A stretch of DNA of 63,833 nt, filler included, from Stramenopiles sp. TOSAG23-3 (lineage: Eukaryota), in the NCBI GenBank assembly GCA_900128585.1. It is 27 parts of 27 records of this genome, joined end to end, with 100 filler letters (N's around TTAATTAATTAA, not from the genome) between each part and the next. Parts side by side here need not be neighbours in the genome. Positions count along the whole stretch, not along the records: positions 1 to 8,318 come from LT643037.1; positions 8,419 to 16,723 come from LT643038.1; positions 16,824 to 25,126 come from LT643039.1; positions 25,227 to 26,751 come from LT645734.1; positions 26,852 to 28,375 come from LT645735.1; positions 28,476 to 29,999 come from LT645736.1; positions 30,100 to 31,622 come from LT645737.1; positions 31,723 to 33,244 come from LT645738.1; 19 more parts are not named here. One strand, 5' to 3'. Positions 6,743 to 60,624 of this stretch are shown here, piece by piece. A program made the translations under genes and the position numbers. Every line of letters starts with the position of its first letter. The first letter of the stretch is position 1. The notes beneath the pieces were generated by a model that was not told where the DNA came from, ran no database searches, and worked only from the letters and a program-made list of their open reading frames with translations.

Positions 6743-8132
6743 TTATCCTACACCGCACCAATATCCCTCAAAATCACTTGTGCGAAAATGGTCTCCATAA
6801 AAGATCAACTGTGGTAACATTGTTTGGATAAACGACTGGTTGAATTGGAACCCCGAACCGCCTATACCCAAGTATTCCAAGTCTTTTAGTTGGTCAATGC
6901 TGGGGAAATCGCCGCTGAAATTGTTGTAACGCAGGTCCAACCGCTTCATCTTTGTTAATCTATTGATCCAAGGCAACGTGCCTTTCAATTGGTTGTTTCG
7001 GAGGTTGAGACACTCTAGGTTTGTCAAGTTTCTGAAGTGGTGAGGCACGGATGTATTCAACAGGTTGTTTTGGAGATATAAATGTTGCAACCCTGTCAAC
7101 CCGCTTACATCGATGGACGTCAACTGGTTGATGTGGAGATTTAAATATTGCAACCCTGTCAGCCCGCTTACATCGATGGACGTCAATTTGTTGCTGTCGA
7201 GAGATAAAAAATGCAACCCTGTCAGCCCGCTTACATCGATGGACGTCAATTTGTTGTCGTCGAGATCTAAACGTTGCAACCCTGTCAGCCCGCTTACATC
7301 GATGGACGTCAATTTGTTGTTGAATAGTAATAAATGTTGCAACCCTGTCAGCCTGTTTACATCGATGGACGTCAATTTGTTGGTGTGGAGATATAAATGT
7401 TGCAACCCCGTCAACCCGCTTACATCGATGGACGTCAATTTGTTGTTGTCAAGATCTAAAATTCGCAACCCTATCAACCCGCTTACATCGATGGACGTCA
7501 AGTCGTTGCTGTCGAGACGTAAATGTTGCAACCCTGTCAACCCGCTTACATCAATGGACGTCAATTGGTTGTTGTGGAGATTTAAATATTGCAACCCAGT
7601 CAACCCGCTTACATCGATGGACGTCAATTCGTTGTTGTGGAGATATAAAGTTTGCAAGCCATAAAATTTCCCAATACACTCCGTTGATAAGTTATAAACC
7701 AAATCTATACGCAAAACCGCCACTTTTGTCAACTGACAAACTGGAAACGTTTCCTTTCCAGTACCATAAAAATACACATTTCGTACATCATTGTTTCGAA
7801 AATAGTCCCCCATCAGCTTGGTTGGAAATTCTCTCAAACGGTTTAAGTCCCTACTTTCCACTGCTAAACTAACGGCCTCCAAATCATCCATATAAACTTT
7901 GCCTCTTTTCCATACATCATTTAAGTTATACAATGCGTTCATCTTAACATCTTTCACAGGATTTCTGGATACGTCTAACATTTTCAGTGGTACATCACTA
8001 AAACGAACAGTAAAATCCAATCTCTCTAATCTGTTCTCAGAAATATTCAAACGCTCAAGGTGTGGGAGTACCTTCAGAATTTCATCGACATCCTTTGTTG
8101 TAAAGTCCCCTCTGGACAAGTCTAAGTCCTTC
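6743..8132 (-). CDS. LRR protein with ~10 near-identical 21-aa repeats; 3' exon, 5' end incomplete
   Basis: GLQxLxLxxNxLTSIDVSGLT repeats followed by plant-type LRRs (NNQLKGTLP, NNFSGDFP). No ATG start; an acceptor-like TTAG and an AT-rich intron-like tract lie at 8133-8240. Confidence 0.9.
7061..7660 (-). repeat. 63-nt coding tandem repeat array, about 10 units
   Basis: ATCGATGGACGTCAA recurs every 63 nt (7109, 7172, 7235...). Confidence 0.97.
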
Positions 8133-8318
8133 TAAGCAAACTATATATAAATTTGTTTTAAATCAAAACGTACTATATAAAATATAAAAAATGAGAGTTT
8201 GAAAGCATACTATATAATTTGTTTTTTATATATATGTACGCTACATAGCAGCCCGCCAGAGATGGATGGACTGGCAGATGCGAATATGCCAGAGGAATGT
8301 CCTGAACGGGGTCGCCAA

Positions 8319-8418
8319 NNNNNNNNNNNNNNNNNNNNNNNNNNNNNNNNNNNNNNNNNNNNTTAATTAATTAANNNNNNNNNNNNNNNNNNNNNNNNNN
8401 NNNNNNNNNNNNNNNNNN
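8319..8418. other. Artificial contig linker N44-TTAATTAATTAA-N44 (first of 26; others start at 16724, 25127, 26752, 28376, 30000, 31623, 33245, 34866, 36486, 38102, 39716, 41330, 42943, 44552, 46161, 47769, 49377, 50985, 52592, 54199, 55806, 57413, 59019, 60625, 62230)
   Basis: Identical 100-nt spacer with stops in all six frames; flanking contigs decrease monotonically in length, so neighbouring contigs are not genetically linked. Confidence 0.99.
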
Positions 8419-9017
8419 GTTTTCATATTTTAATTAGAATATACAATAGTATCGTCCTGTTAAATAGTATTTTATTTATGGTTTTAGTTTTAGTTTTAGT
8501 TATAATACTACTTATACTTCTACATTTTAGTTATAATACTACTTATACTTCTACATTCTATACATAAATAAATAATTGCAACGTTTCTCTCAAAACAAAC
8601 TGCCCTTAGAAAATATATTTTAGTAGCACTTACCAACGGTTTTTCTAAATTCATTATAACTAAAATAGTACTATTATATAAATGGAATAGAATTGATTCG
8701 TATGATGCACTGGATCTAAATTAAGGATACAGTAGTCAGTCTATCTTTCTAGTATACATTTAGGAGATGTATAACTATAATAACTATAACCACCACACAC
8801 AAAAACACAACAACAACAAATTTCTTTTTATTTAATTATTTGTCTTTTCTTTTTATCGACGTTGAATAAAAGTATGATACATTTACAATACTTCTTTTAC
8901 AAACCAAGATATGAAAGAAGAAACGGTGTATGCAGCCATCAATTGCCTCTCTGAGACGTAGCGGGAAAATTCCAACGAAATAGCACCGGAGAGATTTGAT
9001 ACAGGTAACAAAGACAC

Positions 9018-9389
9018 ATGGGGCTGTGCGCTAGTTCGACCGTAAAATTAGACGATCCCGCGTCCCCTGCGAAAGCAAACCCGGTGGTTCCCTCCCCCGA
9101 CAATTCGTCGTCCAAGAACAAAGCAAGGAAAAGTAATGTGGCAAAGAAGCGAATGAGCCGTCCGGGTGCCAACACTGTGCAAAAATCGCGACGAGTTCCA
9201 AAGGGAGATGAAAAGTGGAGGAAAGGGCGGCAATCGTTCCGGGAACAGATGAAGAAAGATCGCATGAAGTTTATGAAAAAGAAAAGTGAGGGGGGCGGCG
9301 GCGATGTGGTTGTTGTGGTATCGTGCAAATCCCCGAAGAATGCTATAAAGTCGAAACAAGGCGATTTGGCGATGACGGACTACGACTAA
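9018..9389 (+). CDS. Small basic protein with N-terminal MGLCAS dual-acylation motif
   Basis: ATG-started GC-rich ORF; Gly2 and Cys4. Confidence 0.6.
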   Translation: MGLCASSTVKLDDPASPAKANPVVPSPDNSSSKNKARKSNVAKKRMSRPGANTVQKSRRVPKGDEKWRKGRQSFREQMKKDRMKFMKKKSEGGGGDVVVVVSCKSPKNAIKSKQGDLAMTDYD

Positions 9390-9568
9390 TGCTGCACGTC
9401 GCGCTGTTCGCACGCATCATAGTACCGTGTAATGATATTAATTGACAAGTGCAGAATTACGAGAGAAGTCAAGATGCCATTTCTATTTTAACAACATTAT
9501 TATTATATACTATGAATATGACACATGTAACTTAGGCGGCCGTGTTAGAACTAAAAATGTATTAATTT

Positions 9569-10492
9569 TTACCACACCTCGCCCTCCTCGTCGTCTTCCC
9601 CACTGCTGGAGTCGGAAACGGTCTTTCCGTACTTGGAAGCCTTCTTTTTCTTCTTCTTCTTTTTGTGCTTTTTCTTCTTTTTGTCCTTCTTGTGCTTCTT
9701 CTCTTTCTTTTCCTTGGAGTCGTTCAGCACCAGGCCCTCAGGGTTTTCCCTATGGATGGACTCATCGGCGTGCTCGTCCGTTCTTGCCCCGCCCACCCCC
9801 TGCTGCTTCTTCGCTACGAGCTTCAGCAGGTGCTTCTTTAAGTTTCCAGCTATGTCCCCGTACAGCCTGTTCCGCCTTGTCGCCTCGCTATCCCAGAACT
9901 GCGCCCCAAATATTCGCTCTTTCAAATGCAGCTGCATCTGAAACATTGGAAACAGCAATTTGTCGTTCCGCTTCGACATTTCCTCGAACATTTGGAGCGA
10001 CAGCGAACCGTCCCCAGATTCGTCCATCATCTTCTGAACGACACTGTACACGTTGTGGTTCGCTTTCCAGGTCGGGCCGTACACATCGGCAAACATTTCT
10101 TCGACGACGTCCGGCTTGATTCTATCGGTCTCCTCCGTGTCGTACAGGCTGAACGCAAAGCGCACGAACGTTTGCTTGCGAACCGTCATGAAGATCCACA
10201 GGGCAAGGATAAAAGCTTGAAAGTCTACACCCTCACGGTTCCCCAGGAAATGAAAACAACGGTCCGTGAAGTTCGTCCGGTCTACTTTAATGTACTTGTA
10301 GAACTGCTCTATCGTAAACGTATCCGTATTGTCCTTGTCGATCTTTTTGAAGAGCTGGTAAAACTTGTCCACCCCCTGGTCGTCCAACTCTAGAAACGAA
10401 TGGCATAAGTCATACGTGTCCTGCTCATGCCCCACTTTGCTTGGGTTCACCTCGAAGGCGTAAACTTTTTGTTTGCTTGCACACAGCCCCAT
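9569..10492 (-). CDS. Myristoylated EF-hand protein (calcineurin B/neuronal calcium sensor-like) with lysine-rich tail
   Basis: Starts MGLCASK; EF hands DKDNTDTFTIEQF, FAFSLYDTEETDRI, DESGDGSLSLQMF. Confidence 0.85.
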   Translation of the reverse strand: MGLCASKQKVYAFEVNPSKVGHEQDTYDLCHSFLELDDQGVDKFYQLFKKIDKDNTDTFTIEQFYKYIKVDRTNFTDRCFHFLGNREGVDFQAFILALWIFMTVRKQTFVRFAFSLYDTEETDRIKPDVVEEMFADVYGPTWKANHNVYSVVQKMMDESGDGSLSLQMFEEMSKRNDKLLFPMFQMQLHLKERIFGAQFWDSEATRRNRLYGDIAGNLKKHLLKLVAKKQQGVGGARTDEHADESIHRENPEGLVLNDSKEKKEKKHKKDKKKKKHKKKKKKKKASKYGKTVSDSSSGEDDEEGEVW

Positions 10493-11363
10493 CTCTACCC
10501 AGTCGGCGAACAAGACTTCAGACAAACGCACACAAGTATCTACAACGAAATATTTTCTGTCGGTTATGAAAATATGAGTGATGGACTCGTCGTACATATA
10601 TTAAAACGCACAACCTAAAGTTGTTGGGTTATTTTATGAAATATATAACGGCTAAAATTTAGTACGGGGTACTGATGATATAGAGGGCTATACGTAATAA
10701 TAGAAGAATAATAATAATAAAATAAAAAATTGGTTTTTTGTTGTTGTTGGTTCCTTTTCTTCTTTTTTTTTCTAAGAAAAATAATATGAGAGAGAAGAAG
10801 AAAATAAATAATATTACATACATTGCACAGCATGAAAAAATCGTATTTCTATAACACTAGTAATTACCGGAAGAAGAAGAGAAGAAGAAAGAACGAAAAA
10901 CTGGATTTGCTCCTTCTGATTCTGTTATGCAGTACTCGTAGTCCTGGCAAAATCAATGTTATTACCATACTACGAGTAGTCGGTCTAGCTAGTCCACGAT
11001 AACCTTTCTTTCTGCAATCTGCAATCTGGACGTCTAATTAGAATTAAAAGATGCCCACTTGTTTTTCCCTTGCTGTGTTACTACTATATCATTATTTTTT
11101 TAGCTAGAAAAATTTATAATATATACATACCATTGGGAAAGTTGGTTAAGGGGTTGTTTAACAAAGATGGGAAAGTTTTAACACCGTATTACCTACCGAG
11201 GAAATGGCCGACGCAAGAAGTACTACTTTCGAATTTAACAACTGTGTAACATTGGTCATACCCACAGACAGATACGGCCACCCGTTCCATACAAAAGTTT
11301 CAAACGATGAGAAAAGTTGTGTTTTATTTCCATTAAAAAAAAGGAACGCCATACTTTTACAAG

Positions 11364-12458
11364 ATGCCAAGCAATACTAACACACCAAAAGCACTGACGA
11401 AGGAACAGCAGCTGGCGCTGGAGCAGCTACGACGAGTTCTCCCCGCCGTCGAAGAGCAAAGCCCATCTCGGAAGAGGGCCATCAAAGCATTGGGCAACGA
11501 AAAAAACGTTGACCCCGAGCGACACTTGAAGGAAGCGAATAGAAACCTTCTCCAGGCGACGCAGGCGCTGCGGAAAACATCTATGAACGCGCACGGGAAG
11601 ACCCTGGCGACCTATTACAGAGATGTCCCCCCACCGGTACATCCCCAACTAGACCTTGGGCCGCCGCCGAAAACCATTTGGGAGCACACCGTAGAGGGCA
11701 ACCTATCTTTTATCAACGAGTACGCAGCGGAAGGAAAAACTTTTGAAGCTGTCAGTTCCGATGGCTGGACACCACTGCATTTGGCGACAATGAACAATAA
11801 GCTTCGCTGCATGGAAGTGTTGATCAACCATGGGGCAAATATTGAGTCCAAGCGAGCAAAGTATTTGTGTGAAACGCCCTTGATACTGGCTTGTCGTCTT
11901 GGGCTGACGACAGCTTTGCAATTGTTGATTTTTCACGGGGCTTCACCAAATTCATTGGATGTGAACGGTATGTCCGGCCTGATGCACGGGGCGCAGGAGG
12001 GTCACATGGCCATATGCACGGCACTGTTGTCGTGCGGGGGGACATCTATGTCGAAAAAGTGCAAAGAGGGCAGGATGAAGGGCAGAAGCGCCGAAGAAAT
12101 TGCCCTGTTTAAAGCTCGAGTCTCGAAAGGGTGCGATGCATTCTCGCTCTACAACAGCATTCGGCTGTACATAATGAAAATGAGGGATCAGTCCGCAGCA
12201 AAACGAGATCTGGCCAAGATTTCAAAAGAGGCGTTCTGTCGGCGGAGGCTATCCCAAGTCGGCCTGCGCCACAATGCGCAAAAACTAGCTCAACTGCCGA
12301 TTGGCCTACCGCACGAAAATCTAACGTTGAACGACGCCTTGGGAGGCCGCAACACTGCGCGGATCAGTCAAGTCCGAGTCAGCGACTTGGTCAACGCGGG
12401 GGTATCCCATGGACAAGCCGACCGAGCTCTGAAAATGTGGAAGAGGAGGGTTCTGTAA
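11364..12458 (+). CDS. Ankyrin-repeat protein
   Basis: DGWTPLHLA, ETPLILAC and NGMSGLMHGA ankyrin motifs. Confidence 0.9.
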   Translation: MPSNTNTPKALTKEQQLALEQLRRVLPAVEEQSPSRKRAIKALGNEKNVDPERHLKEANRNLLQATQALRKTSMNAHGKTLATYYRDVPPPVHPQLDLGPPPKTIWEHTVEGNLSFINEYAAEGKTFEAVSSDGWTPLHLATMNNKLRCMEVLINHGANIESKRAKYLCETPLILACRLGLTTALQLLIFHGASPNSLDVNGMSGLMHGAQEGHMAICTALLSCGGTSMSKKCKEGRMKGRSAEEIALFKARVSKGCDAFSLYNSIRLYIMKMRDQSAAKRDLAKISKEAFCRRRLSQVGLRHNAQKLAQLPIGLPHENLTLNDALGGRNTARISQVRVSDLVNAGVSHGQADRALKMWKRRVL

Positions 12459-12831
12459 TAAAGGGAGGGTGAAGAGCGCGACACGCCTGCACGAAACAGT
12501 GCGATATTGAAAAAGCGCTAAAAGGGCGCTGCAGGGGCGGAAAAGATAAGGCTGCGCTGGTTTTGAAAGAAGAAGAGAAGAGAAGAAGAAAACATTTAAT
12601 TCGTTTTGGAGGAAAATATGTTATTTTTTGTTCCCTCTGGTTTTTTTATCATAAAAGAACTTAAACTTTTTTAACCAGAACACAAACAAATAAGTTCTTA
12701 ATATCTGGTATTCTTTACGTAAAACAACCGAAACCTTTCTTTCTCCTAAATTATCATGATGCCACATTACTGGCAATACCTGGCCATGCGCAATTGTGGT
12801 CCCTCAAACCTTTCCGCGCGACTCCTACGGC

Positions 12832-13518
12832 CTAAGCGTCTTCGTCCTCTGCACTGATCCAGCCTTGGAAGGCCCAGAAGAATTCCTTAAAAGTAATAGT
12901 GCCGTCGTCGTCCCAATCCATTTCTTTCCATCGTTCAGCCGACAGTACGCTCGCAGCGCCAGCAGATTTGAATGCACCTTCCTTGGCCTGCATCTGCTTC
13001 AAAACCTCCTCCTTGTCCAAGATCCCCGTGTGTTTCACATCAAATACTAAGTATGCCCCTAACACCCAATCGAACGCCTGCTTCAGTTCTGGGCCAAGTT
13101 CGGAGCCACTCCCGACTTTTATGTCCCCAAGCACATAACCTAACGCCAAGCACACTAAAAACTCTTTGTGGGTCAGGTTCTTGTTCGCGTACATGTCGGC
13201 CTCTTGGAACACGGTCGAGATTTCTTCATCCGTCATACTGTCCGTGCCAAGCTTTGCCAGAAAAGGTTTGATTTCGTCATAGTCCAAAGTCCCGTTCCCG
13301 TCATCGTCGCACGTCTCAAACATGGCTTTCACCTTTGTAAACGAGGCGTTGATCTTTGGAAATTTCAGAATAATCTGGTCAAAGCTAGTGACCTTATTCT
13401 TCGAGGCGTCGTACTCTACCTTCAAACGCTCCAGGTTCTTTGCAACCCTGGCGTCGAAGGGACTCAGCTTTGCGGGAGCAGTTTTGTTGCCTGCGGCAGA
13501 CGAGTTTGCACAGCCCAT
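12832..13518 (-). CDS. Myristoylated calmodulin-like 4-EF-hand protein (CML21/22-like)
   Basis: MGCANS start; IILKFPKI, DDDGNGTLDYDE, DWDDDGTITFKEF. Confidence 0.9.
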   Translation of the reverse strand: MGCANSSAAGNKTAPAKLSPFDARVAKNLERLKVEYDASKNKVTSFDQIILKFPKINASFTKVKAMFETCDDDGNGTLDYDEIKPFLAKLGTDSMTDEEISTVFQEADMYANKNLTHKEFLVCLALGYVLGDIKVGSGSELGPELKQAFDWVLGAYLVFDVKHTGILDKEEVLKQMQAKEGAFKSAGAASVLSAERWKEMDWDDDGTITFKEFFWAFQGWISAEDEDA

Positions 13519-14618
13519 TGGTGCGTGTAGTGTGATAATACGATTGTCCGGAACGCTGACAAGTTTTTATTATCTCTGTGCAATGCTTTGCAGGGATTCT
13601 TATTAGACGAATAAAAGCGGTCGCTGAGTTGTCAGCAGACAGTCGAAAAGTTTCCCGCTTTCGGTACGTGTGGAAAGATGAATGCTTCGTTCATTCATTT
13701 TGTAATACCAAGTAGACATCAACAAGTGTACCACTTCTTTTCTTTCGTGTCGAGAAAGAAGAAGAAGAAGAAGAAGAAGAAGAAAAGAAGAAGAAATCAT
13801 TAATTTTAATAATGTTGTAACAGTACTCTCTACTCTCTACCGTATTATAGAAGTACGGTGTACGGAACAAAAAGAAAGAGAAAGGAGGATGGAGGGAGGG
13901 AGAAAAGAGAAAGGAGGAGAGAGGAGCTAGATCATCCATCTTCTTATTTACGATTGAGACTACGAAATAATATACAACAACTATAAATACATCAAACTAT
14001 TCGTCCATAGTATAGTATAGTATTATATTGTATATAGGCTACTGTATTATAATTTTTAAAAAAGATCGATCTATATTGTACTACTACTACTACAACAACA
14101 TACACACACCAAAGCAAAGCCCTCTTCCTCAAATCTCTCTTTTCTCTCTTCTTCTTCTTCTTCAGGCTAATAATGGACCATTCTGTACTTATTTATGTTC
14201 AATTGGTATTCTAATAATAATAATAATATCAATTTTCTTCTATAAAAAAATTAAAAATAATATATGGTACTGTAGCTAAGGCCCACCTCCTTTTATTTCC
14301 TTGACTTATATCTGCTGCTGTGCTATATATAACTGAACGGTGAGGAATTTTAAAGAAGAGGTCAAATATCATCGTCGGATCATCGATCGATCGATCATCT
14401 TAATCGTCAAAAAAACAACAAACTCTTTTTTATTATTTATTATTATCATCTTATGTAGTATTTATTACTACAACACAACTCTTGATACGGTAGATAATAG
14501 TCGTTCTAGTAATAACGAAGTTCAAATTCAATTTTCTACTATCTCTTCTTCTGCTTTTCAATATAATCTCCAGCTTCAAAGAGGTAAAGAATGTGTTAAA
14601 CGTTTTTGCAGCAACGGA

Positions 14619-15438
14619 ATGTACTGGGAACATTCGTTCAAAGCCGCCATGAGCTATTCTAAAAATAACCCTCACAGGTTGGATAATGTGTATAATTTTC
14701 GAGCCGTATCTTCTCCAGTCCTCAAGCAGACCGTGTTGTACCGGTCCGCCAACCTGATGTCGGCGACTGAAAGGGACAAGCGTATCATATGTAGTGATGT
14801 TGGTTGCCGGACATACATAGACTTGAGATCGGATAGAATACCTAGCTCGGCGTGGGAGCAGGCGTGGGGGGGGGAAGCTGAAACGATACCATTGCAGTGT
14901 TGCCGAAAACCTTACCCCAATGGTGAATACAACAATACCGGAAGTGAGAGAGTTTTTTGACTCCAGCTTTCCTGAGGGAGAAAAACTTTTTGACGACGAC
15001 GCACAGCACGAGCTGTTTCTCAAACATTACATGATATTTTCTTGCAAGTACAATGGCAAAGGGCCAATACTGAAGACACTTCAAATCATGAGCAAGGAGG
15101 AAAACTACCCGATCGTGTTTGGTTGCCATGCTGGCAAAGACAGAACCGGCCTTATTGCGCTCTTTGTCAATGAAATCTGTGGGCTTTCCCGGAAAGAAAT
15201 CTTTGACGACTACTTGCTCAGTAATCCTGGACTTGGGGACGGTTCGAACGATAGCCCTGGGGGGAAGGTCTATCATGGGTCCTTGAAGGGGTTAATAGAG
15301 TGGTTGGAGAGAGAATTTGGCTCGATACATCAATATTTAGAGCACATCGGCCTGGGAATGGAAGAAATGGAAGCGATACGAGGCATTGTTTCCAGCAACG
15401 GGAGCAGGAGGCGCCCATTATTTTCAAGTAAATTGTAA
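14619..15438 (+). CDS. Protein-tyrosine/serine phosphatase (Y_phosphatase3, IphP/PtpB-like), frameshifted in this assembly at a G9 run
   Basis: VYNFR, LYRSANL and YIDLRS in one frame; CHAGKDRTG P-loop and DDYLLSN in the +1 frame; switch at G9 14866-14874. Confidence 0.85.
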
Positions 15439-15558
15439 AGAACCGCTCAGGAAGAGGTGCACCTCGTGATATTCAAATTATTTTGATTTTTTTTACCTGA
15501 ATCCTGAATCGTATTAAAATTGTTAAAGAATTCTTTATACAAAGTAGAAAAAGTACAA

Positions 15559-15745: not shown

Positions 15746-15874
15746 TCTTGTTTTTATAGAAAAGTGCATTCAATATGTATACGGCTTAAAGAGTAAGACA
15801 GGGGGGGGGGGGGGGTACTCATGCAAACACTCATTTTTTCTTAAAAACAGCATGGCGCAGTCGAGCCCGCCCGT

Positions 15875-24850: not shown

Positions 24851-25279
24851 AAATCTAGCACACGAGTTCTACACGACAGGAAAAAACGAACAGTTAAAGT
24901 TACGCCAGTTACGAAGGAAATTGCAAACCTAGAATGTCTAAATCTAGATTTTCAGTTCGCAGTGACATTAATTTTAATTATCATACCAATTTTCTTGTTA
25001 AAAAAAAGTCTTATCATACGACGCCTTTTTGTGTTTTTAATAATTTTCAATTTTATGTTAGTTTGAATGATGAATACCAGAAGTCTTATTCTGGAACAAG
25101 GAGGAGTTTGGGTTCTTGAACGGTTTNNNNNNNNNNNNNNNNNNNNNNNNNNNNNNNNNNNNNNNNNNNNTTAATTAATTAANNNNNNNNNNNNNNNNNN
25201 NNNNNNNNNNNNNNNNNNNNNNNNNNCATTTGCCAAAATCCCAATGTCGGAGCTGAACGCGATCCATAACGACAAAGGG

Positions 25280-26751
25280 TTCCAGAAAAAAATTCAGAAG
25301 CTTATAATATTTTTTGAAATCTTGTTAAAACAAAAATTAAAGATTTTGATTTTAAATTTTTTTCTGATCGTGAATATTTTTTTACTGAAGTTAAAACTTC
25401 TTATCTTGAAATTAAAGTTACAGGAGACCTTTGAATGTATGATGGTTTAGATGCTAGTATGCAAGTAGAAAAACAAGTAATTAATTTTTTTAATGATTGG
25501 TCGGCTAAGCCTGGTATGCTTGACTTAGGTTACAAAGTAAAACATCATTATTCATCAGAAAATCATCCATTCACTTATAAATCTTCAGATGAGCTTGTAA
25601 ATAATGTAGATTCTACTTCTTATATTCTTAATGGAAAAGATTTAGAGTCTAAAGAAGACCTTACTTCTACAGAAAAAACTAAATCTGAAAATAAAAAAAA
25701 AGATAGTGATGATGATGATGGTAGTAATGGAGGTAATTCTGGAGAGGGATCTTCTTCTAATGAAGAAACTCCATCAGCAGAAACTGAAGTAGATACCACT
25801 TCAGTAGAAGATACTGTCAATAGTATTGTAGCTGAATTATTTGATTTTAATTGAGAAGTTTTATCAAATAGTTTAGTTTTAAATTTAGAACAATGAAATT
25901 TTTCTATTTATGGGACCATTATTATTGTTTTAAGTTTTTTAATTGGTACTTTATTTTATAAAATTAAAGGAGCTCCTTTTCATATTTGAGCCCCAACTAT
26001 TTATACTAGAATGCCTACAGGATCTATGGTAGTATTAGTTACTATTTTTACTTTAATTTTTAGTTTATATTTTTTTCAATTATTTTTTAAAATTTTTTAT
26101 TTATATTCTAATTTCTTTAGTCAATTTTTTATTTTAGGAGGAATTTTATCTTTAATTTTTGGATTTTTAGGAGCTTTTGATCAAAAATTATTAAAAAAAT
26201 TTTTTATTTATAGTTCTATAGGGCATGTAGCTTTCTTATTATTTTCATTTATTGCGCCTTATACTTTCCAAAGTGGAACTAGTTTACTTATGTATTTATT
26301 AATTTATTTAGTTTCAACTTTTTTATTATGGTTTTTAATTACACATAATACAAAAAAAGTTGAATTTTTATCTAATTTATTAGTTAATATTAAAGAAAAT
26401 TCTTTATATTTTTTTTTATTTGTTATTATAGTTTTTTCTATGAGTGGTATTCCACCTTTAGCAGGATTTTTTATTAAATTTGATATACTTTCAATTCTTG
26501 CTTTATCGAATGAATTTTTAATTTTATTTACTACTTTATTAATAACTGTAGCAAGTTTTTATTATTATTTAAGATTAGTAAAAATTTCAAGTTTTGAGAA
26601 TTTTAAATCATATTTACTCCAATTTTTAAAAATTGAAAATTTTTGAGTTTATATTCGTTTAGTATTTTTATTTGTATTCATTATGTTTTTATTATTCTTT
26701 CCTATTATTTTTGAACAAAGTTTTTATTACGTACTTTCTTTTATTTTTTAA
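25280..26751 (+). CDS. nad2: Mitochondrial NADH dehydrogenase subunit 2, 5'-partial, TGA=Trp
   Basis: YKIKGAPFHI(TGA)APTIY, KKFFIYSSIGH, FSMSGIPPLAGFFIKF, FYYYLRLVK. Very AT-rich; a single frame is open to TAA 26749-26751 if TGA is read as Trp. Confidence 0.93.
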
Positions 26752-34965: not shown

Positions 34966-36485
34966 GTCCCTACAATAATTATGATCGCCTAGATATTCAT
35001 ATCCGTGTTCATGCGGAATATCAGCAGTCCATTTTTGGCATGTTAAACCATTAATAGTTGTATTGGTGTTTGGATATGCTTGCTTTGTGTAACTCATACC
35101 CAAATTACACTTGATTAATTTTGTTAGATTTTCGACTATATCCTCCAAACGTGATTGTGTATCATTCAGATTGTTGGATTGTAAAAACAGGGATTTTAAC
35201 TGAGATAGTTTCCCTATTCCAATTGGTAAAGCACCTGTCAACTGATTATTGGCAAGATTAAGATAGGCCAACTTGGATAACCTGCCAATTTCTTTTGGTA
35301 GTGATCCAGTCAAATTGTTATTACCCAAATGAACATGTCGTAACATGACTAAATTCAACAGAGGCTTTAAAGTTCCATCAATGCGTAAACAGTAAGGTAA
35401 GTCAAGTTCCTCTAGCTTCGACAAATTTTCCAAGGGTTTCAAAGTACCCGTGACAACGGATGCACCTAGCTTGAGTGTTGTCAAAGAATTTAGCTCTGTA
35501 AATGGATCTAGGGTTAAAGTCAAATACGAACCGTATGCATCGAATGTTTTAGAGTTTCTTAAACATTTCGGCCAAGGTAAGAATGCAGAAAAGTTTTGCA
35601 TAACACTTGTCTCAAATTTAATGGTCTCTACCACCGGATTTAATGGCAACACTAGATTACTGAAGTACATCTTTGTTTCGGCAGCTTTATTATTCAAGCT
35701 CTTAAAGCGAATCTTCACAATAGGATTTTCCGTCAAATAAATTCGCAAGCCATTGTTTATATTGCTTTCAACTGCCTTACTTGTGACTATAAATTCACTT
35801 ATTCTGTTTCGACTTAAATCCAATTCATTTAAAGTGCTCAAATCTGCCGTCAGAGTACATTTGCTGAAGTCTTCTGCAATTGAGTTTAACAGCAAAAATT
35901 GATTTCCGGACAAATTTAAATATTTCAGTTTTTCAAATTTGCAAAAGTCCTCGTACCCAGGAGTTGTATGATTGAGAAAATTTCCACTTAATTGAAAATA
36001 TTCCAACGTAGCCCCAAAACTTCTGTAAAAAGTACTTTCTACGGGTGGCAATGCGACGATTCCCTTGTTCGACCAATCAATGGATGTAGCAATAGGGGCA
36101 TCAGTAACAATAAGCTCTTGAATGTGCAAAGAAACTGCCACTTCAAACGGAATATGCCGTACGCCAGTGTACGAAACATCTAAAATACGAAGAGATGCAA
36201 TGGACGCCAGAGACTCCGGGATGCTTTCCAATTGAGGGTTGTGCGATAAAAAAACATTTTTTAATTTTGGCATTAGGCTCCCAATTCTGTCTGGGAGATA
36301 ATGAACATTTGCTTTGGAGCACGCCAACGACTTAACGTCCGCAAATGCGCAAGAGGGTTTGCCCATGATTCCCCCAGGAATATTAAAATAAAAACGCTCG
36401 GATGCGCAGAGCGAAATCGGTCCAACCTCTGCTACGCATTCCTTTTCTATGGCAACGTACTTGGCAATTGCCACTAAACAAAACG
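34966..36485 (-). CDS. LRR protein with C-terminal kringle domain, partial at both ends
   Basis: LGNNNLTGSLPKEIGRLSKL-type LRRs, then NTTINGLTCQKW...PHEH...GDHNYCRD (kringle signature). Confidence 0.85.
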
Positions 36486-39815: not shown

Positions 39816-39852
<37 letters not shown>

Positions 39853-52539: not shown

Positions 52540-52691
52540 TTTAATTTTTTTTCATACGGAATTTCGTCCCTAACGATTTTAATTTTTGAAANNNNNNNNN
52601 NNNNNNNNNNNNNNNNNNNNNNNNNNNNNNNNNNNTTAATTAATTAANNNNNNNNNNNNNNNNNNNNNNNNNNNNNNNNNNNNNNNNNNNN

Positions 52692-54100
52692 GGCTCGCGT
52701 TTGTTGTTACCACTCGACCCGAAGTAAACCTCATGGAAAAATTTGAACGGGCAAATCTTTTCCCCAAAAAATTGGTCGCCCAAGATCGGAGAAACGTGGA
52801 CGATGTAAGCACCTTTTTGAGAGATGTACTGAACGGAAAACTCTCGAACAGCGCCGATTTGGAAGAAGCGGTAAAGATATTAGGAGGCAAAGCCGAAGGA
52901 CTCTTCCTGTACGCGCACCATGCTGTCACTGACCTGTTGCTAAATGAGGGAACGGTGGCGTTAGAAGATTTGAAAGCGTTTCCAAAGGGGATTGAAGAGT
53001 TTTACAGTGAACAATTCAAGCGTATCTTTGAAGGGGAAACGAAAATTAAGCGATCTTCTACGTTATGGAAGATTGTTGAATGTATTGTCGTTGCTGAGGA
53101 ACCGTTGCCATTGAGCGTCTTGGGGGCAATGGTTGAATTGAAAGAGGATGAATGGCTCGATGAATTTGTTCAAGGGCGTCTCTCTTCGTTATTTCCCACC
53201 ATCAATGAGACGGTTCGGGTGAATCACCAAAGCGTGGTCGATTGGTTGACGGACGAAAAGCGGAGGCGAAAACGGTTGTTTGTCGATGTAAAGAATGTCC
53301 ACAAACGCATGGGGGAATCGTGTCGAAGGATATGGGAACGGAAGAACAGCGCGAAGGACGGTTTTGAGTATGCTATGCGGTATTGTGTGGCTCATTTTTG
53401 CAAGGGTGGCAATGAGAAAGAAGCGCGAGAGGTCATGTTTACGTTTGACTGGTTGCTGGACCGTGCAATGTTAGGCCCTATTCATGCGTTGGTACTTGAT
53501 GGAAATCGTATTTTAAACAGAAAAGACAAAGCGTTTGAACTTTTGCACAGCGCCATCAAATTGTCAGTGCATGTGTTACAAAAGGATCCTAGTCAGCTGG
53601 GCGTACAAGTAATCAGTCGGTTGTTGACCCATTTGCATCATCCTGAGATAAAACAATTGGTGGAAACAATACGTAGTATGGAGGGCTGGTATCCCATGTG
53701 GCCAACCATGGAGCAAGCAGGTGGGCCATGTTTGGTTACCTTGGGGGGGCATTCTGTTAGTGTAACTTCCCTCGCGATACATGGAGAGAACATCATCAGC
53801 GGTTCATATGACAATACCATAAAAATATGGAATCGAGAGGGTGAATGTCTGAAAACGTTAGAGGGACATTCTGGGTATGTATCTTCCCTCGCGATACATG
53901 GAGAGAACATCATCAGCGGTTCAGGGGACAATACCATAAAAATATGGAATCGAGAGGGTGAATGTCTGAAAACGTTAAAGGGACATTCTAAGGCTGTATC
54001 TTCCCTCGCGATACATGGAGAGAACTTCATAAGCGGTTCACGGGACAATACCATGCAAGAGTGGCGTTACTTTTATACTGCTGATGGTAATATGAGATAG
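52692..54100 (+). CDS. NACHT/STAND-WD40 (NWD/HET-E-like) protein, 5'-partial
   Basis: VVTTRP (sensor 1), KAEGLFLYA, FPKGIEEFY, HQSVVDWL, YAMRYCVAHF, followed by near-identical WD40 repeats. Confidence 0.85.
53737..54056 (+). repeat. 117-nt coding WD40 tandem repeat, about 2.7 units
   Basis: AAAATATGGAATCGAGAGGGTGAATGTCTGAAAACGTTA recurs at 117-nt spacing. Confidence 0.95.
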
Positions 54101-54298
54101 TTAAATTTTTACGGCAGTATTCCCTCCCCTGTTTTTTTGTACAATTTATATTATGCATATTTATTACTCGTAGATTTTTTTAAAGAAAGAAGAAGAGANN
54201 NNNNNNNNNNNNNNNNNNNNNNNNNNNNNNNNNNNNNNNNNNTTAATTAATTAANNNNNNNNNNNNNNNNNNNNNNNNNNNNNNNNNNNNNNNNNNNN

Positions 54299-55016
54299 CC
54301 ACGATTTTATTAACAGCGAGGTGGAGCCACGTGAGATTAACGAGCGTTGCCAGTGGTGCCACGTCCACGATTTGATTACTATAGAGGCGGAGCTCCGTGA
54401 GATTAACGAGCGTTGCCAGTGGTGCCACGTCCACGATTTTATTTCCATGGAGCGAGAGCCTCTTGAGATTAACGAGCGTTGCCAGGGGTGCCACGTCCAC
54501 GATTTGATTATTCCAGAGGCTGAGCCACTTGAGATTTACGAGCGTTGCCAGTGGTGCCACGTCCACGATTTGATTACCAGTGAGGTAGAGCTCCGTGAGA
54601 TGGACGAGCGATGCCAGTGACGTCACGTCCACGATTTGATTTTCACGGAGGTTGAGACACGTGAGATTAACGAGCGTTGCCAGTGGTCCCACGTCCACGA
54701 TTTTATTTCCACGGAGGTCGAGTTTGTTCACCTTCAGCAACTCCTTTCCCACCATCTCACGGAGCTCCTCCTTGGTGTTGTCCAGATCGAACAAACCAGG
54801 TTTGCTTTGTTTGCATGTCTCCACAAGCCTCTGGATCATAGCACCACGACCATACTGTGGAAACAAGCCAACGCACGCCTCCTCGCCCTCGCAATGAAAC
54901 ATCAACATCGCTTCTATCAACGTGTCGTTGGTTACGTTGACTGAAACATCCTTCACAGCAGCAGCAGCGCCAGAGCTTCCCCCCTGCATGCTTTCGTCAA
55001 CTCCGTCAACGGGCAT
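54299..55016 (-). CDS. Internalin/SDS22-like LRR protein with 66-nt near-identical repeats, 3'-partial
   Basis: LxxLxLxxNxIVDVAPLATLVN x7; the contig breaks inside the array. Confidence 0.92.
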
Positions 55017-55905
55017 GCGGACGAAGGGTAAAAAACATCTTTAAAATGCTTCGTTTTAAGAAAGTGTTAGGTTTACGAAACTGTCTTCGGAAACAGTTGT
55101 GTCTTAATCGGATACTTCATTCAATGGAACAATCTTTTCCGTCTTCCCGTGGTCCTTGCAATGGATGCTGTGCTGATGTTGTACCTTGGTAGTTGGGCGC
55201 GACTCATTTGGTAGTCTACTGAAATAATATATAGGGATTTCCCTTAAAAAAATAGATAATACCATGGTCCATCCATGTATGGAAAAAAATAAAAAAATAT
55301 TCCACTTTTTTAAATTTTTCATATACAACTACAACTTTTTAAGGATACTACACACCATTGTATTAAAAGATTGTAGTTGTATATTATGAAAAATGAAAAA
55401 AATACTACTACTTTTTTTCTTCTTCTTTTTTCTCCATTTTTTTATTGTTGGATTTATAATAATTTATAATATTTTATTTATTAATAGGTAGTACCAGGTA
55501 CCGGTACCGGTATATAGGTAGGAGGATCTTCTTTCTTTCTTCTTCTTCTTTCTTCTTCTTCTTCTTCTTCTTCTTCTTCTTCTTCTTCTTCTTCTTCTTT
55601 CTTTTTCTTCTTCTTCTTCTTTCTTCTTCTTTCTTCTTCTTTCTTCCTCTTCTTCTTCTTCTTTCTTCTTCTTCCTCCTCTTCTTCTTCTTTCTTCTTCT
55701 TGGACACAAATAAAAATAATCACATCCATCTCTCTAATACGAGGAATGTATTACATAATATAATAATACCATCCAGTATTAAAAGTATTAAGAAGGAGGC
55801 GGAGANNNNNNNNNNNNNNNNNNNNNNNNNNNNNNNNNNNNNNNNNNNNTTAATTAATTAANNNNNNNNNNNNNNNNNNNNNNNNNNNNNNNNNNNNNNN
55901 NNNNN

Positions 55906-56434
55906 TGTCCTTGTGGCCTACGCGAATTCGGAAGATGACCTACAAAAGAAGCCGTATTTTGGTGTTGACGGACTCCTACTAACGGTGAAAGGCGACTTGC
56001 ATCATGCCCATCGCCTAAGGAATATTCACCACCGTTTCACACGACTGGTGGAGCCGTACAAGAGCAAGCATCTGTGGTGGTACGTTCAAGAGCAGGTAAG
56101 TTTTTCCTTTTATAAATACATAAAAAACGAGTTTTAAGACTAACATTTCTGGATTCTTTTTCTTCAATAGTGCGAACAGACATGGAAAACCGCCAAGCCG
56201 GACGATCATCACACTGCGGCAACGGTGAATCTTCATGAGATGAAGCTTTGGTGCTGGGCAGGATATAAAGACGAGGATGTGACTGACTGGAGCCATCATC
56301 CGTGGGACGTTACGTTTATCCGCGATGCAGAAGCGTTAGGGAAAGCGCCGCATGCCTATTGGCACACACACAAGTTCGATACTTCGCAGCATCCACCAAG
56401 GCCCCTTCCAGAAGAAGCGAAAACGGAATTGTAA
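55906..56434 (+). CDS. 3' part of a hypothetical gene with intron 56096-56170
   Basis: CAG|GTAAGT...CAATAG|TGC joins the two ORF-track pieces in frame. Confidence 0.65.
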
Positions 56435-56757
56435 ACGCGCCCGTTTAAGCCGTGGGAGAAAATTTAGAGAGAAGCGATAGACATCATTTTTTAAGAATTT
56501 CTCTTGTTAAAATTCACATTTTTTGGAGTACCCTTTTGCTTTAGTTTGGGTGGGGTAACTTTTTTATAATAAAATCCAACGTGTTGGTAGGTTTTATTTT
56601 TAAAAATCGTTTTTATTTTATCATATCATATTAAAAACAAGAAAATTGGCTGTTATTTATATTAAGAGAGAGAATTCTTCTAAGTTTTTATCATTAAATT
56701 GCAGAAAAGTGAACGCGACTTCGAGGTTTATTTTCATATTTACAATTTTTGCTTTTG

Positions 56758-57412
56758 TCATCCCATCACAATACTGGACTCTCTCCTCCGCAGCAAGTTT
56801 TGACCAAACAGCTTCCTCAAGACGCTGCTTACTTCTTCAAACCTGCTGGAGTCTTTAGCGTTCCGAAATACATAAAGCACTGCGCGCAAAACAAAACAGT
56901 ACAGTTCGACGCCTTGGTCTACTTGCTGCTGCTTTGCATAGTTTACGTTCGCTTTGCATAGGTTCAGTTCAGTTTCGCCAATGTGCACAATCAGGTCCGA
57001 GAGAAAATTCAAATACGATGGATCGTAAACTTTTCTTAATTTTTCAATGATGCCATTGTCTGCGCGTATTGATTCCCCGAGGGGTTTTGGGACAAAGCTC
57101 GCTAGCCCTAGCGTTTCTTCTGCGTTTACCTCTTTGATTTCGTTCTTTCGATAGATCAACATGTAAGCGCTAGTTGTTGAAGGCTTTTGCGAATAAAAGC
57201 TATAGGCCGAGCTAAAACTTTTGGCCGCTCCACCGAAACAGTCAGCTTCCATTCTTGACTGCGAGTCCCATGGAACCACCTTCAGATCGTTGCATTCTTG
57301 CCACGTTCCATCGTCTTGTCGAATGAACGCGTAGTAATGCCCAGTAGTAGCCTGCCCGCTGTGAATAATGATGCCAGACAATCGGTATTTTGTGCCGGTG
57401 CGTTCGGCAGAG
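56758..57412 (-). CDS. Ubiquitin-specific protease (C19) His-box fragment
   Basis: YRLSGIIIHSGQATTGHYYAFIRQ...WQECND...SAYMLIY. Confidence 0.88.
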
Positions 57413-57518
57413 NNNNNNNNNNNNNNNNNNNNNNNNNNNNNNNNNNNNNNNNNNNNTTAATTAATTAANNNNNNNNNNNNNNNNNNNNNNNNNNNNNNNN
57501 NNNNNNNNNNNNCCCCCC

Positions 57519-58784
57519 CTACCGTTTCAACTTCTTCAAGGTCTGCTTGGCCAGTTTTACTTTCTGCAGCTTCATCTTTTGAATTTGCAAGGACAACTTT
57601 TTGTCGACGATTGGAATGCTGATTATGGATATGTTTCTGCACGTGCGCCGTACGTAAGCTTTGGACAGCAGAAAAGACGCTGGATCCTCAATGACGGCCC
57701 CCTCCGCATCGATCCCGTCAATGATGTCCTTGACGGCTTGAAATGGACCTATGCTATCCCAGAAACCAGAACTCCCTATAATACAGATTTTTGTTTCGAA
57801 CGATAATTCCAATTCCTTGATCGAGGGTTCGGGAGAAAGTCCCAAATGACTTGCGTCGCTGCAGCCAAGGGCTCTCGTCACCAGTAATCCTGGATCGGTC
57901 GTGTCGGGTTCGCAAAGGCGTGCAGTCCCGCCACCAAAAGTAGTCCCGTGCTCCGTCAACGCCGCCCCACACTTAAGAACTCGCTTTCGTTCCTTCGTGC
58001 TGCTTACTGTGCTGTGGTTTTCAGACATCGCGTGGGCTAGTATTTTTGCAAGTTTGAGCGAGTTCTTAGAATTTTGAAGCTCCCCGACAACGACGCCGCC
58101 GCGTCCAACGTTTGCGCAGACAATCTTTGTTGGGAAGAGCCAGGCAATGGTAGCAGTGGACCCGCTTTTTCTCGATTCAAACCTGGGGACTTTCTTCTTT
58201 GCCTTTTTCTTTCCTCCTATAGACCACCCGGAACCTTTCTTTGACGACCCTTCGTCTTCTGCTAATTTCGATTCAAGAAGGATACTTTTGTGAGTGGCGA
58301 GAAAGGCTTCCCTCAGGGCTTCCGCACATGTCATTTTCCCCTTTTGGATCTTTTTCCACCGCGTCTTCAGCTCTGATGGTAACTTTGTGCTGGCCCATTC
58401 TGCTATTTCCACGCCGCCGTCCCCGATTGCTTCAAATATTCCGCACAAACCAGTTTTACCCACAAAATTTGGGATGAGCATCACGGTCTCTCTCAGCTCC
58501 CTTTCCAGCCCTATTTCGTTCAGAAATTTTGCACGTTTCAGAACTGCCGCAGGCGTGAACAAAAACCTTTTGTCCGTCGCTTCGTCAGTTTCCTCGTTTG
58601 ATAAATCATCGTCGCTCCGATCAAACTTGCTTTCCGATTCAAAATCATCACCTTTTGCATTCTTCTTTTTCACCTTTATCAAATCGAACGGCCCAACTTT
58701 CGGTTGTACGTATGTCACCCGCTGTTTCTCTAACGCTTCAGGCGGATAGTACTCCTCCGAATACTCAGACCCCGCCCAACTCAT
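57519..58784 (-). CDS. PP2C/PPM-fold protein, catalytically degenerate
   Basis: SGSTATIA, CANVG, ERKRV, PGLLVTRALG, LSPEP and GFWD are present, but the metal-binding Asp residues are replaced. Confidence 0.8.
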   Translation of the reverse strand: MSWAGSEYSEEYYPPEALEKQRVTYVQPKVGPFDLIKVKKKNAKGDDFESESKFDRSDDDLSNEETDEATDKRFLFTPAAVLKRAKFLNEIGLERELRETVMLIPNFVGKTGLCGIFEAIGDGGVEIAEWASTKLPSELKTRWKKIQKGKMTCAEALREAFLATHKSILLESKLAEDEGSSKKGSGWSIGGKKKAKKKVPRFESRKSGSTATIAWLFPTKIVCANVGRGGVVVGELQNSKNSLKLAKILAHAMSENHSTVSSTKERKRVLKCGAALTEHGTTFGGGTARLCEPDTTDPGLLVTRALGCSDASHLGLSPEPSIKELELSFETKICIIGSSGFWDSIGPFQAVKDIIDGIDAEGAVIEDPASFLLSKAYVRRTCRNISIISIPIVDKKLSLQIQKMKLQKVKLAKQTLKKLKR

Positions 58785-59119
58785 TCACCCCCTTCAGCCC
58801 GTACGCAATGCGATTTTATGCTGTTGCAAGTAATAATGTGAACAAGCTGTCGAAAAGAATACAGCGCACTAACAAGCTTTTGTTTTAATCGTTCTAAAAC
58901 CATATTCAGCGAAAGCTAGATTTCTCATATTAGAATTGTCGTCTTACAATCTTACAATCTTACTCTGGCTCCAAACTTCAACACCAATGTTCGTGTCCTT
59001 GCGGTTGTTTTTTTCCATNNNNNNNNNNNNNNNNNNNNNNNNNNNNNNNNNNNNNNNNNNNNTTAATTAATTAANNNNNNNNNNNNNNNNNNNNNNNNNN
59101 NNNNNNNNNNNNNNNNNNC

Positions 59120-60624
59120 GTCTTCACCAAAACGCTGTGCTACGGGATAGGCGAGCGCCAAGCGGCGATGGGAAACAAGCCCTACGCTACCTCGAACGAC
59201 TTGCTCGAGTTCGTCCAAATACGGGTGCACGAGAAGACCAACAACAGGATGCAGCCGTTGGGCGAGAAAATGCTGCACGACCACTTCGATGCGCCCTGCA
59301 ACGGCCAGTTCGTCATGTTTCACGAAGAGACCATACGGAACCTGGCGGCGAACGCCGAGACGGAGGCGGTAGTCAGGCCGACGACGAACATTGGCACGCG
59401 CGGCGTAGGAACAAAGTCGCCGGCCAAAGGCCCGGCGAACCAGGCCCAAAGCGTCGCAGCGTTTGGGACTGTTCAAGCGTTTGTGAACTCCATCGAAGGG
59501 GTGAAAATAAAGACGCCCCTGGGGCCGACCTTCGCCGAGCTGCAGGTGGCGACCGTTGCGGACCTTGCCAGCCTGCCCTTGGACAAGGTCGAAAGCACCA
59601 TACTTCCCCGGCTGAAGCCGTTGGAGCGGAAAAGGTGGGCCCAGGGGGACGTGATCGGAAACGCGAAGAAGCACGTCGCAGCAAAGCTGGCCGCCATCGA
59701 GGAGAGCGCGGCGAGCGCACGAACGGTGCAGGAATGGCTGACGCTACTCCCCGCTTCCGCGCAGGAGGCCGTGAAGGCCTGGTTGGTGGAGGAGTACGGG
59801 GTAGAACTAGACGACGGGCTGGACGACGTCGTCGCGATGGAGCAAGAGTTCCTGGGGCAGTTGGTGAACGCCGTAGTCGGCGGTGGGGCGCACGGCCAGG
59901 CGCAGGCGCAGGCGCAGGCGGCGCTGTTGGGGCTGTACAGCGGGAACGAAACGACGAAGACGTGGCTTACGGAACAATTCCAGGAGGCCGAGGGGAGATT
60001 GGCGGCCAAGAAAGCCATCGAGCGGCAGTTGAACTCGCCGGCAGATTGGGACGCCGTGGAAAAGGTCGTCGGGAAGAAAGCGGCGGACCAGATGAAGCAA
60101 GGCGAGGAGTTCACGGGAACGTTGGATATTTGCGAGAAGCAGATCACGGACGAAGGGTGTAAAATACTTGCGCCGGCGTTAATCAAAATGACGGGGTTGA
60201 CTCGACTGGATTTTGACAGCAACAAGTACGGAGACGAAGGACTTCAATTCGTAGCGCCCGCTTTAAGAACAATGCCAAATTTGAAGGAGCTTTATTTGTA
60301 TTCCAACAATATTGGAGTTGAAGGCTGCCGAACAATCGCTCCGGCCTTAAGAACAATGCCAAACTTGGAGACGCTTTCTTTGAATTCCAACAATATTGGA
60401 GTTGAAGGCTGCCGAACAATCGCTCCGGCCTTAAGAACAATGCCAAACTTGAAGAAGCTTTGGTTGTCTTCCAACAATATAGGAGATGAAGGTCTTGCTG
60501 TGTTGAGTAATGTTGTTGATGCTATTCCACTGCTGTATGATCTTCGTTTGTCTGATAATAAGATTGGTAATGTTGGTTGTCAATGTCTTCTTGAGTTAAT
60601 TGAGAATGATTCGTTACAATCATT
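59120..60624 (+). CDS. RI-like LRR protein with 84-nt repeats and a possible caspase-like (C14) C-terminal segment upstream; partial at both ends
   Basis: MPNLxxLxLxSNNIGVEGCRTIAPALRT repeats; frame open from the contig edge with VFTKTLCYGIG...DLLEFVQIRVHEKT..RMQP...GQFVMF. Confidence 0.8.

Follow-up and report, generated by a model that had tools for sequence, protein, structure and literature searches.

Do repeat genes of a marine protist renew their binding surfaces in the way known from fungal and brown-algal recognition genes? The question is raised by four tandem repeat arrays in a stretch of 63,833 nt from the assembly of Stramenopiles sp. TOSAG23-3 (GCA_900128585.1), the whole of which we call the window. 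It consists of 27 contigs joined by N spacers and ordered by length; three are some 8.3 kb long and the other 24 some 1.5 kb. The arrays stand on separate contigs (1, 21, 22 and 25), and we refer to them and to their genes, in that order, as A, B, C and D. An initial annotation of the window had placed four arrays here, and Tandem Repeats Finder (TRF) recovers all of them at closely matching coordinates. Every array lies inside a long open frame with Pfam matches to leucine-rich repeat (LRR) or WD40 families. They represent four distinct repeat classes in unrelated genes. We favour, with moderate confidence, the reading that units were recently duplicated and homogenised in four independent genes, with diversifying selection acting on the binding face.

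7064..7657, (-) strand: array A, TRF period 63, 9.4 copies, 86% matches
53746..54054, (+) strand: array B, TRF period 117 (39 codons), 2.6 copies, 91% matches
54299..54722, (-) strand: array C, TRF period 66, 6.4 copies, 81% matches, cut at the contig end
60263..60492, (+) strand: array D, TRF period 84 (28-codon LRR of the ribonuclease inhibitor (RI) type), 2.7 copies, 90% matches

Frozen scaffold and variable face

Array A comprises nine near-identical LRR units of 63 nt (21 codons) and a diverged tenth. Array C holds at least 6.4 units, and its interior units differ by 7–13 nt overall. Units 1 and 2 of array B differ at 10 of 117 nt. Two units of array D differ at 5 of 84 nt, all five differences being non-synonymous. 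Changes were counted for each codon column on a minimum spanning tree over the distinct codons. The x positions were set in advance from the LRR consensus LxxLxLxxN, and enrichment is given as the share of equal-sized codon subsets that reach the observed x-count. Over the nine units of array A, 34 changes were counted, and 25 of them hit x codons, which make up 6 of the 21; this count is reached by 5 of 54,264 subsets. Five units of array C place 24 of 29 changes in 8 of 22 codons (111 of 200,000 sampled subsets), and the two units of array D place 5 of 5 changes in x codons (144 of 200,000 subsets). For array B, 6 of the 10 nucleotide differences lie in four codons around a conserved V and D (244 of 82,251 subsets). 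The claim of the initial annotation that differences focus on the LRR x positions or the WD40 face is thus borne out in all four arrays. Its companion claim, that units are identical even at synonymous sites, stands well for B, C and D and less well for A. Scaffold differences number 0 in D and 0–1 per 42 nt among the interior units of C; array B has 1 synonymous difference. The scaffold of array A is less frozen, with 0–5 differences per 45 nt.

Self-similarity of this kind is special to the four genes among the repeat proteins of the window. As an internal control we used the self-identity of each protein shifted against itself over at least 100 aa, which gives 0.81 for A, 0.85 for B, 0.76 for C and 0.69 for D. 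Five other LRR, WD40 or ankyrin proteins in the window reach 0.18–0.39 and lack such self-similarity. Contig 10 carries a fifth LRR gene (34966-36483, (-) strand) with plant-type 24-residue units, which is open at both contig ends and served as an internal control; its self-identity is 0.39 and it has no tandem repeat at the DNA level. The units of each array were found nowhere in the window outside their own array, so that the sharing of units between loci, for which the initial annotation had suggested a test, is absent from the window.

In array A the pairwise proportions of non-synonymous (pN) and synonymous (pS) differences are 0.393 and 0.107 at x codons, and 0.020 and 0.138 in the scaffold. 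Tree counts give 24 non-synonymous to 1 synonymous change at x positions versus 3 to 6 in the scaffold (Fisher p=0.0004). The replacement rate at x codons divided by the synonymous rate pooled over the whole unit is 3.16 for A (p=0.003) and 2.65 for C (p=0.011). The initial annotation had named dN/dS (the ratio of non-synonymous to synonymous rates) at x codons as one of its checks. This ratio significantly exceeds 1 with pooled synonymous sites, but the excess is non-significant when the only synonymous sites counted are the few within x codons (p=0.107 for A, p=0.53 for C). The latter result weighs against our reading. So does the nature of the tests: units are non-independent, recombination can inflate such statistics, and the rates are pairwise or tree counts.

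In array A, hypervariable codons are interleaved within 30 nt with Leu and Asn codons that are invariant even synonymously. Such interleaving can come neither from segments that differ in age nor from tracts of conversion. Selection on single residues can produce it, and a very precise mutator could. Differences of two or three nucleotides are seen within several x codons, and these would suit a mechanism that steers mutations to x codons in place of selection. However, variable and invariant codons alternate every 3–6 nt in four repeat types, which fits protein-level selection and no known mutator, and we regard targeted mutagenesis as very improbable. A mutator resembling a diversity-generating retroelement, or of another kind, was set aside: our general Pfam scan, which covered 36 open reading frames (ORFs) of the window of at least 130 codons each and included no dedicated search for such genes, turned up no reverse transcriptase or deaminase family.

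The course of events that we propose combines turnover of units with selection on residues. Units would have been duplicated recently within each array, and unequal recombination or gene conversion would keep them alike inside it, as in concerted evolution. Diversifying selection would retain replacements at the binding face, and each array would in this way sample new binding surfaces on a fixed scaffold. Unit number or homogenisation differs among the relatives of A, B and D, which argues for ongoing turnover over a single burst. In our reading, one evolutionary regime acts in parallel in four genes that do not make up a single machine.

Gene architectures and their relatives

Gene A is an LRR-only protein. 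Irregular LRRs at its N-terminus are followed by the array of 21-residue repeats, by plant-type LRRs and by the C-terminus. An intron appears to interrupt the gene, judged by its splice signals and reading phase, and the relatives P0033 and P0002 extend upstream of 8131.

6743..8131, (-) strand: last exon of gene A, 462 codons plus stop, open frame; Pfam LRR_4 3.1e-46, LRR_8 1.5e-38
8132..8244, (-) strand: putative intron of gene A, 113 nt, GT..AG, GC 0.19
8245..8318, (-) strand: putative upstream exon fragment of gene A, 24-codon frame sharing the reading phase of the last exon and running up to the contig end

P0033, a marine-metagenome fragment, has 83% identity to gene A over the N-terminal quarter. 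P0002 (589 aa) has 44% identity over 99% of the query and ends at the identical point; its Pfam content is LRR families only. It shares the architecture of gene A, but its array has been homogenised to a different, 42-residue double unit. The relatives of gene A that were compared show lower self-similarity at a period of one unit: P0001 reaches 0.65, and the others have their maximum at the 42-residue double period. The repeats are more alike within A or within P0002 than between the two, which is the mark of concerted evolution. The AlphaFold2 model of gene A has a mean predicted local distance difference test score (pLDDT) of 85.3, and of about 95 within the array, and DSSP places strands at unit positions 3–5 (x, L, x). 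Foldseek ranks SHOC2, Leptospira LRR proteins, plant LRR ectodomains and internalins highest, with E of about 1e-15 to 1e-12 and a query-normalised template modelling score (TM-score) of 0.54–0.71 in the SHOC2, Leptospira and internalin rows. A metagenome scan with gene A returned 16 loci, all of them generic LRR matches at 28–45% identity, and no close relative of the gene is among them.

Two other genes were seen on the same contig. About 2.4 kb from gene A lies an ordinary neighbour of cellular type, an esterase of the BD-FAE/alpha-beta-hydrolase kind with a hydrophobic N-terminal stretch (3367-4293, (-) strand). The first ORF of contig 1 (346-1419, (+) strand, 358 aa) has neither a Pfam family nor a relative in IMG/VR. 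Its AlphaFold2 model is unusable (mean pLDDT 31.8), and its Atlas matches at 0.79 are at chance level.

In function, gene C can be read no further than its LRR binding domain. A region of about 100 residues at the N-terminus, for which no relative was found among longer proteins, precedes the 22-residue LRRs.

54299..55040, (-) strand: gene C, open frame; Pfam LRR_4 8.2e-29; the LRRs run off the contig edge

A non-coding trinucleotide microsatellite, (TCT)n with about 55 copies (55527-55701), adjoins gene C.

Gene B is, by homology, a NACHT-type STAND protein (signal transduction ATPase with numerous domains) with WD40 repeats. Its contig begins at the end of the NTPase domain.

52692..54100, (+) strand: gene B, C-terminal 468 codons, from the end of an NTPase domain through a helical domain into the WD40 repeats; 5' end off the contig

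Pfam finds WD40 at 1.5e-26 and APAF1_C at 4.3e-06 (27.1 bits, cut-off 22.8). The 345 non-repeat residues served as the query for relatives. It led to 27 longer relatives, and the family lists of 26 contain NPHP3_N and/or NACHT (25 with NPHP3_N, 20 with NACHT); many come from corals, and the nearest named ones are cnidarian. The NACHT context that the initial annotation gave to the WD40 array is in this way supported by homology, with the NTPase core itself off the contig. The closest relative, P0121 (1245 aa), has 40% identity over 83% and carries NPHP3_N at 505-659 (1.5e-11). Its family lists contain no HET domain. It has 4.7 WD40 units with a self-identity of 0.90, and its linker is almost identical to that of gene B. 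In both proteins the variable positions, compared by eye, are those two and one before V, one after V, and those flanking D. A homogenised WD40 period was found in none of the other 26 relatives of gene B; three of them score high at different periods, in parts that lie outside the propeller.

The third unit of array B diverges past codon 24, the stop codon is at 54098-54100, and AT-rich non-coding sequence follows. P0121 terminates in the same diverged last unit. The end of array B is therefore genuine, whether or not the assembly has dropped units from its interior.

Gene D appears to begin in the last part of a caspase-like domain, with a helical module next and RI-type LRRs after it.

59119..60624, (+) strand: gene D, open at both contig ends; Pfam LRR_6 7.1e-21
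59120..59344, (+) strand: C-terminal lobe of a Peptidase_C14 (caspase-like) domain, by homology to P0150-P0153
59390..60154, (+) strand: helical middle module, uncharacterised, without a Pfam family

Sequence matches in the PDB are ribonuclease inhibitor, NLRP3, RanGAP and axonemal LRR proteins. Relatives were sought with HMMER by comparing the 329 non-LRR residues of gene D with 1.84 billion representatives. This gave 22 relatives, mostly fragments, 10 of which were scanned with Pfam. The first 120 residues of gene D have 59–67% identity to P0150-P0152 and 93% to P0153, which is 98% identical to D over the matched stretch and extends slightly further upstream. In P0151, a Peptidase_C14 match (2.3e-14, residues 6-210) overlaps the start of the stretch aligned with D (174-268), and this stretch passes beyond the C14 match into nearly identical armadillo-type units. 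In the alignment, the final lobe of the caspase-like domain in P0151 and P0152 is matched by the first 75 or so residues of gene D. Gene D by itself has no C14 match at E<=0.01, and P0153 has one only at E=0.17 (profile 169-230 of 233). No caspase family was found in the 36 window ORFs by Pfam. The possible caspase-like effector of the initial annotation thus gains a candidate in the start of gene D, by way of these relatives.

The family of gene D is modular. P0154 and P0157 continue from a D-type middle module into ankyrin repeats, P0166 has a D-type linker and RI-type LRRs, and P0169 contains beta-helix and SPRY domains. P0150, possibly a chimeric model, has half a UCH domain ahead of the last caspase-like lobe. 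Three LRR-bearing relatives have linker and cassette in common, carry 1, 2 or 3 homogenised units (counted by eye) and differ in their N-terminal parts. Internally similar repeats are also found in P0168 (LRR, 0.81 over at least 70 aa) and P0154 (ankyrin, 0.83). These relatives are the best support for turnover of modules and repeats, and they are database proteins, not genes of the source genome. What precedes the repeats in the family is the helical module and not an NTPase. This module matches no Pfam family at E up to 5, and the N-terminal part of gene D has no usable match in the Atlas. By eye, our guess is two SAM-like helical bundles. A PDB profile search with the D-family alignment led to designed ankyrin proteins, a result owed to the ankyrin columns that two of the relatives contribute and irrelevant to the module. 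On contig 23, the C-terminal part of a UCH domain lies at the contig end (56761-57411, (-) strand, profile 195-254 of 254); since one relative of gene D bears half a UCH domain, the piece might be part of a gene of the same modular kind.

B and D thus show what look like receptor-plus-effector architectures. Both would be intracellular sensors in which ligand binding leads to oligomerisation or proteolysis, and they are candidate receptors for non-self or cell death. A sensor role for the two is a reasonable inference. A and C are diversifying binding proteins at most, A being LRR-only and C having an orphan N-terminus.

Several observations on the genes count against the reading that we favour. 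The top structural matches of gene A are scaffold LRR proteins such as SHOC2, and the RI-type LRRs of gene D are also those of axonemal proteins and RanGAP. Decisive parts of the presumed effectors are off the contigs, namely the P-loop of gene B and the catalytic part of the caspase-like domain of gene D (the region of the His-Cys dyad). The units are few in B (2.6, too few for a propeller) and in D (2 near-identical ones). High internal conservation was set at repeats more than 85% identical over at least 100 residues by Dyrka et al. 2014 (PMC4986451). B alone reaches this level, at the border (0.85; P0121 has 0.90), and A (0.81), C (0.76) and D (0.69) stay below it.

The same structural matches of A and D are what ordinary repeat birth would lead one to see. 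Here, divergence on functional residues would be fast for a brief time after expansion, and the genes would be housekeeping scaffolds or adaptors (SHOC2-like, axonemal or RanGAP-like) with no role in non-self recognition. A two-phase regime after duplication of repeats is described as universal by Persi et al. 2016 (PMC5120217), and Pfam finds no effector domain on A or C. Against this stands the density of the arrays, 4 among 9 repeat proteins in 64 kb, whereas the published background for ANK, TPR and WD proteins is 0.4–1.2%, under a stricter criterion (PMC4986451). Ordinary birth also does not account for the apparent sensor-plus-effector architectures of B and D, nor for relatives of A, B and D that are independently homogenised or differ in unit number. 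We consider it unlikely, though the main rival, and retain recent homogenisation with selection on the binding face.

Assembly and source of the contigs

The assembly is fragmentary, and this too limits our reading: most contigs are of about 1.5 kb, and array C is cut by a contig end. Collapsed or mosaic forms of longer arrays or paralogues, or chimeras from amplification, could make unit order, number and combinations unreal. Array B has 2.6 units where its closest relative has 4.7. According to Ament-Velasquez et al. (PMC12222747), Illumina assemblies of HNWD genes come out shorter than the true genes and omit or create repeats. Since B has too few units for a propeller and such assemblies come out short, array B is likely collapsed. 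Array A, in contrast, lies wholly inside a contig of 8.3 kb; its flanks are unique, and the frame stays intact across 10 units. In B, both outermost units border unique sequence, and the ending is common to P0121. Collapse alters the number or order of units and cannot create replacements confined to x positions. Artefacts of assembly probably affect unit numbers, and unit counts from short-read or single-cell assemblies of such arrays are not to be trusted; as an account of the whole pattern we find them quite improbable.

The contigs may also differ in origin, coming from prey, co-sorted cells or virus, in which case no single repertoire would have been sampled. GC content ranges over 0.23–0.58 among the contigs, and GC at third codon positions (GC3) over 0.15–0.82 among the scanned ORFs (gene A 0.52, B 0.48, C 0.61, D 0.69). 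This span may reflect more than one source genome. Heterogeneous GC3 is possible inside one protist genome, however, and the annotated neighbours are all of eukaryote type: in the Pfam scan they include a kinase of the cGMP-dependent type, an Rb-like domain, Fip1, a CLASP-type TOG protein and PP2C, and further UCH, an ABCD transporter, a sulfatase and a subtilase. No relative of gene A, of the first ORF of contig 1 or of the ORFs on contigs 26 and 16 came up in scans of IMG/VR. One source organism for all contigs is, given the GC3 spread, no more than plausible. Mixed origin seems to us rather improbable, and the observation on each gene would be unaffected by it.

Two further features of the window belong here. 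Contig 4 (25227-26751, GC 0.23) encodes an NADH dehydrogenase subunit of the Proton_antipo_M type, a membrane subunit of the respiratory chain, and this very AT-rich contig is probably mitochondrial. A second non-coding trinucleotide microsatellite, (TTC)n with about 47 copies, lies on contig 3 (18843-18993).

The initial annotation went further and placed LRR pieces on viral-gene contigs, within one large and rapidly shuffled recognition system of a single protist. The viral part finds no support: no viral hallmark family occurs in the 36 window ORFs, IMG/VR is empty for the sequences scanned, and gene A is apparently intron-bearing. PADLOC gave weak, repeat-driven matches only. The single system fares no better within the window, where four repeat classes occur without any sharing of units and with GC3 from 0.15 to 0.82. 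In its full form such a reading would describe a marine protist lineage with a germline-diversified recognition repertoire built from interchangeable effector, adaptor and sensor modules. NACHT or caspase-like effectors would be combined, in part through an undescribed helical adaptor, with LRR, ankyrin, armadillo and WD40 sensors, whose cassettes would quickly turn over both unit number and binding-face residues. It would include a receptor class free of NTPase, in which a caspase-like protease is wired straight to hypervariable LRRs. We hold this full reading to be unlikely, and confine ourselves to the same regime acting in four separate genes.

Comparison with known recognition systems

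The signature itself, a homogenised scaffold with a hypervariable face, is already known. Sensors of this kind are the best-documented route to new specificities without adaptive immunity. Documented eukaryotic cases include NOD-like receptors (NLRs) of fungi with WD40, ankyrin and TPR repeats, and LRR and TPR genes of brown algae that diversify through exon shuffling (PMC4986451 and PMC3341825). Its presence in a marine protist assembly would extend the strategy to plankton, which are under intense viral and grazing pressure, and the genes would offer concrete targets for testing defence of the cell-death type. On the full repertoire reading above, if true, it would be the third independent case after fungi and brown algae and the first with intronless LRR arrays. 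New here would be the signature in a NACHT-WD40 gene of a marine eukaryote and in intronless LRR arrays, fungal NLRs being without LRRs (PMC4986451), and also the caspase-like-helical-repeat family. A literature search of partial coverage found no description of these three cases, which is weak evidence of absence. The joining of a C14-type domain to the helical module and to RI-LRR, ankyrin or armadillo cassettes with highly similar repeats was likewise not found in the part of the full-text literature that was covered.

Among established systems, generic LRR scaffolds (SHOC2, Leptospira proteins, Listeria internalins) resemble gene A in fold and in repeat length class. In the variable lymphocyte receptors (VLRs) of lampreys, diversity lies on the concave side of the LRR solenoid, somatic assembly draws on flanking cassettes, and the caps are rich in cysteine. 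In contrast to these receptors, A, C and D have no LRRNT or LRRCT match in Pfam, and the mechanism in lampreys is somatic. No copies of cassettes were found elsewhere in the window, and nothing in it points to somatic assembly. Similar to known fusions of Peptidase_C14 with repeats, gene D and its relatives P0151 and P0152 seem to join a C14-type domain to repeat sensors; the D family differs in having no NTPase domain between effector and repeats. Canonical NLRs differ from A, C and D, which have no Pfam match to an NTPase family.

The brown alga Ectocarpus provides a further comparison for the LRR arrays. Its LRR-ROCO and NB-ARC-TPR genes contain highly alike LRR units with positively selected solvent-exposed residues and variable unit number, according to Zambounis et al. 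2012 (PMC3341825). The replacement excess at the x positions of A and C is similar, if pooled synonymous sites are used, and is non-significant with the x codons' own. The mechanism described there is shuffling of exons, one 72-nt phase-0 exon per LRR (PMC3341825). In contrast, the units here are of 63, 66 and 84 nt and stand in uninterrupted frames, and because of these uninterrupted frames the exon-per-LRR mechanism is inapplicable to A, C and D. Unlike the Ectocarpus genes, A, C and D have no Roc, COR or NB-ARC match in Pfam, with C and D running off their contigs.

Gene B resembles the NWD/HNWD genes of Podospora anserina (het-e, het-d, het-r). In HET-E, codons 7/9 and 25/27, which flank the conserved codons 8 and 26, are positively selected and lie on the top face of the propeller, as found by Paoletti et al. 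(PMC1805685). Gene B differs in its units of 39 and not 42 residues, in that only 2.6 of them are assembled, and in its source, a marine eukaryote assembly, with cnidarian proteins as the nearest named relatives. It shares with these genes what appears to be a NACHT-type STAND architecture, WD40 units that are about 85–90% mutually identical, variation in the residue pairs flanking a conserved V and D, which by eye P0121 shows likewise, and a unit number that varies between relatives (2.6 in B vs 4.7 in P0121). The parallels that the initial annotation had drawn with fungal HET-E/NWD genes and with the LRR genes of Ectocarpus are upheld by what PMC1805685, PMC4986451 and PMC3341825 describe. 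Gene B would thus fit the NLR-like class with high internal repeat conservation that was defined in fungi.

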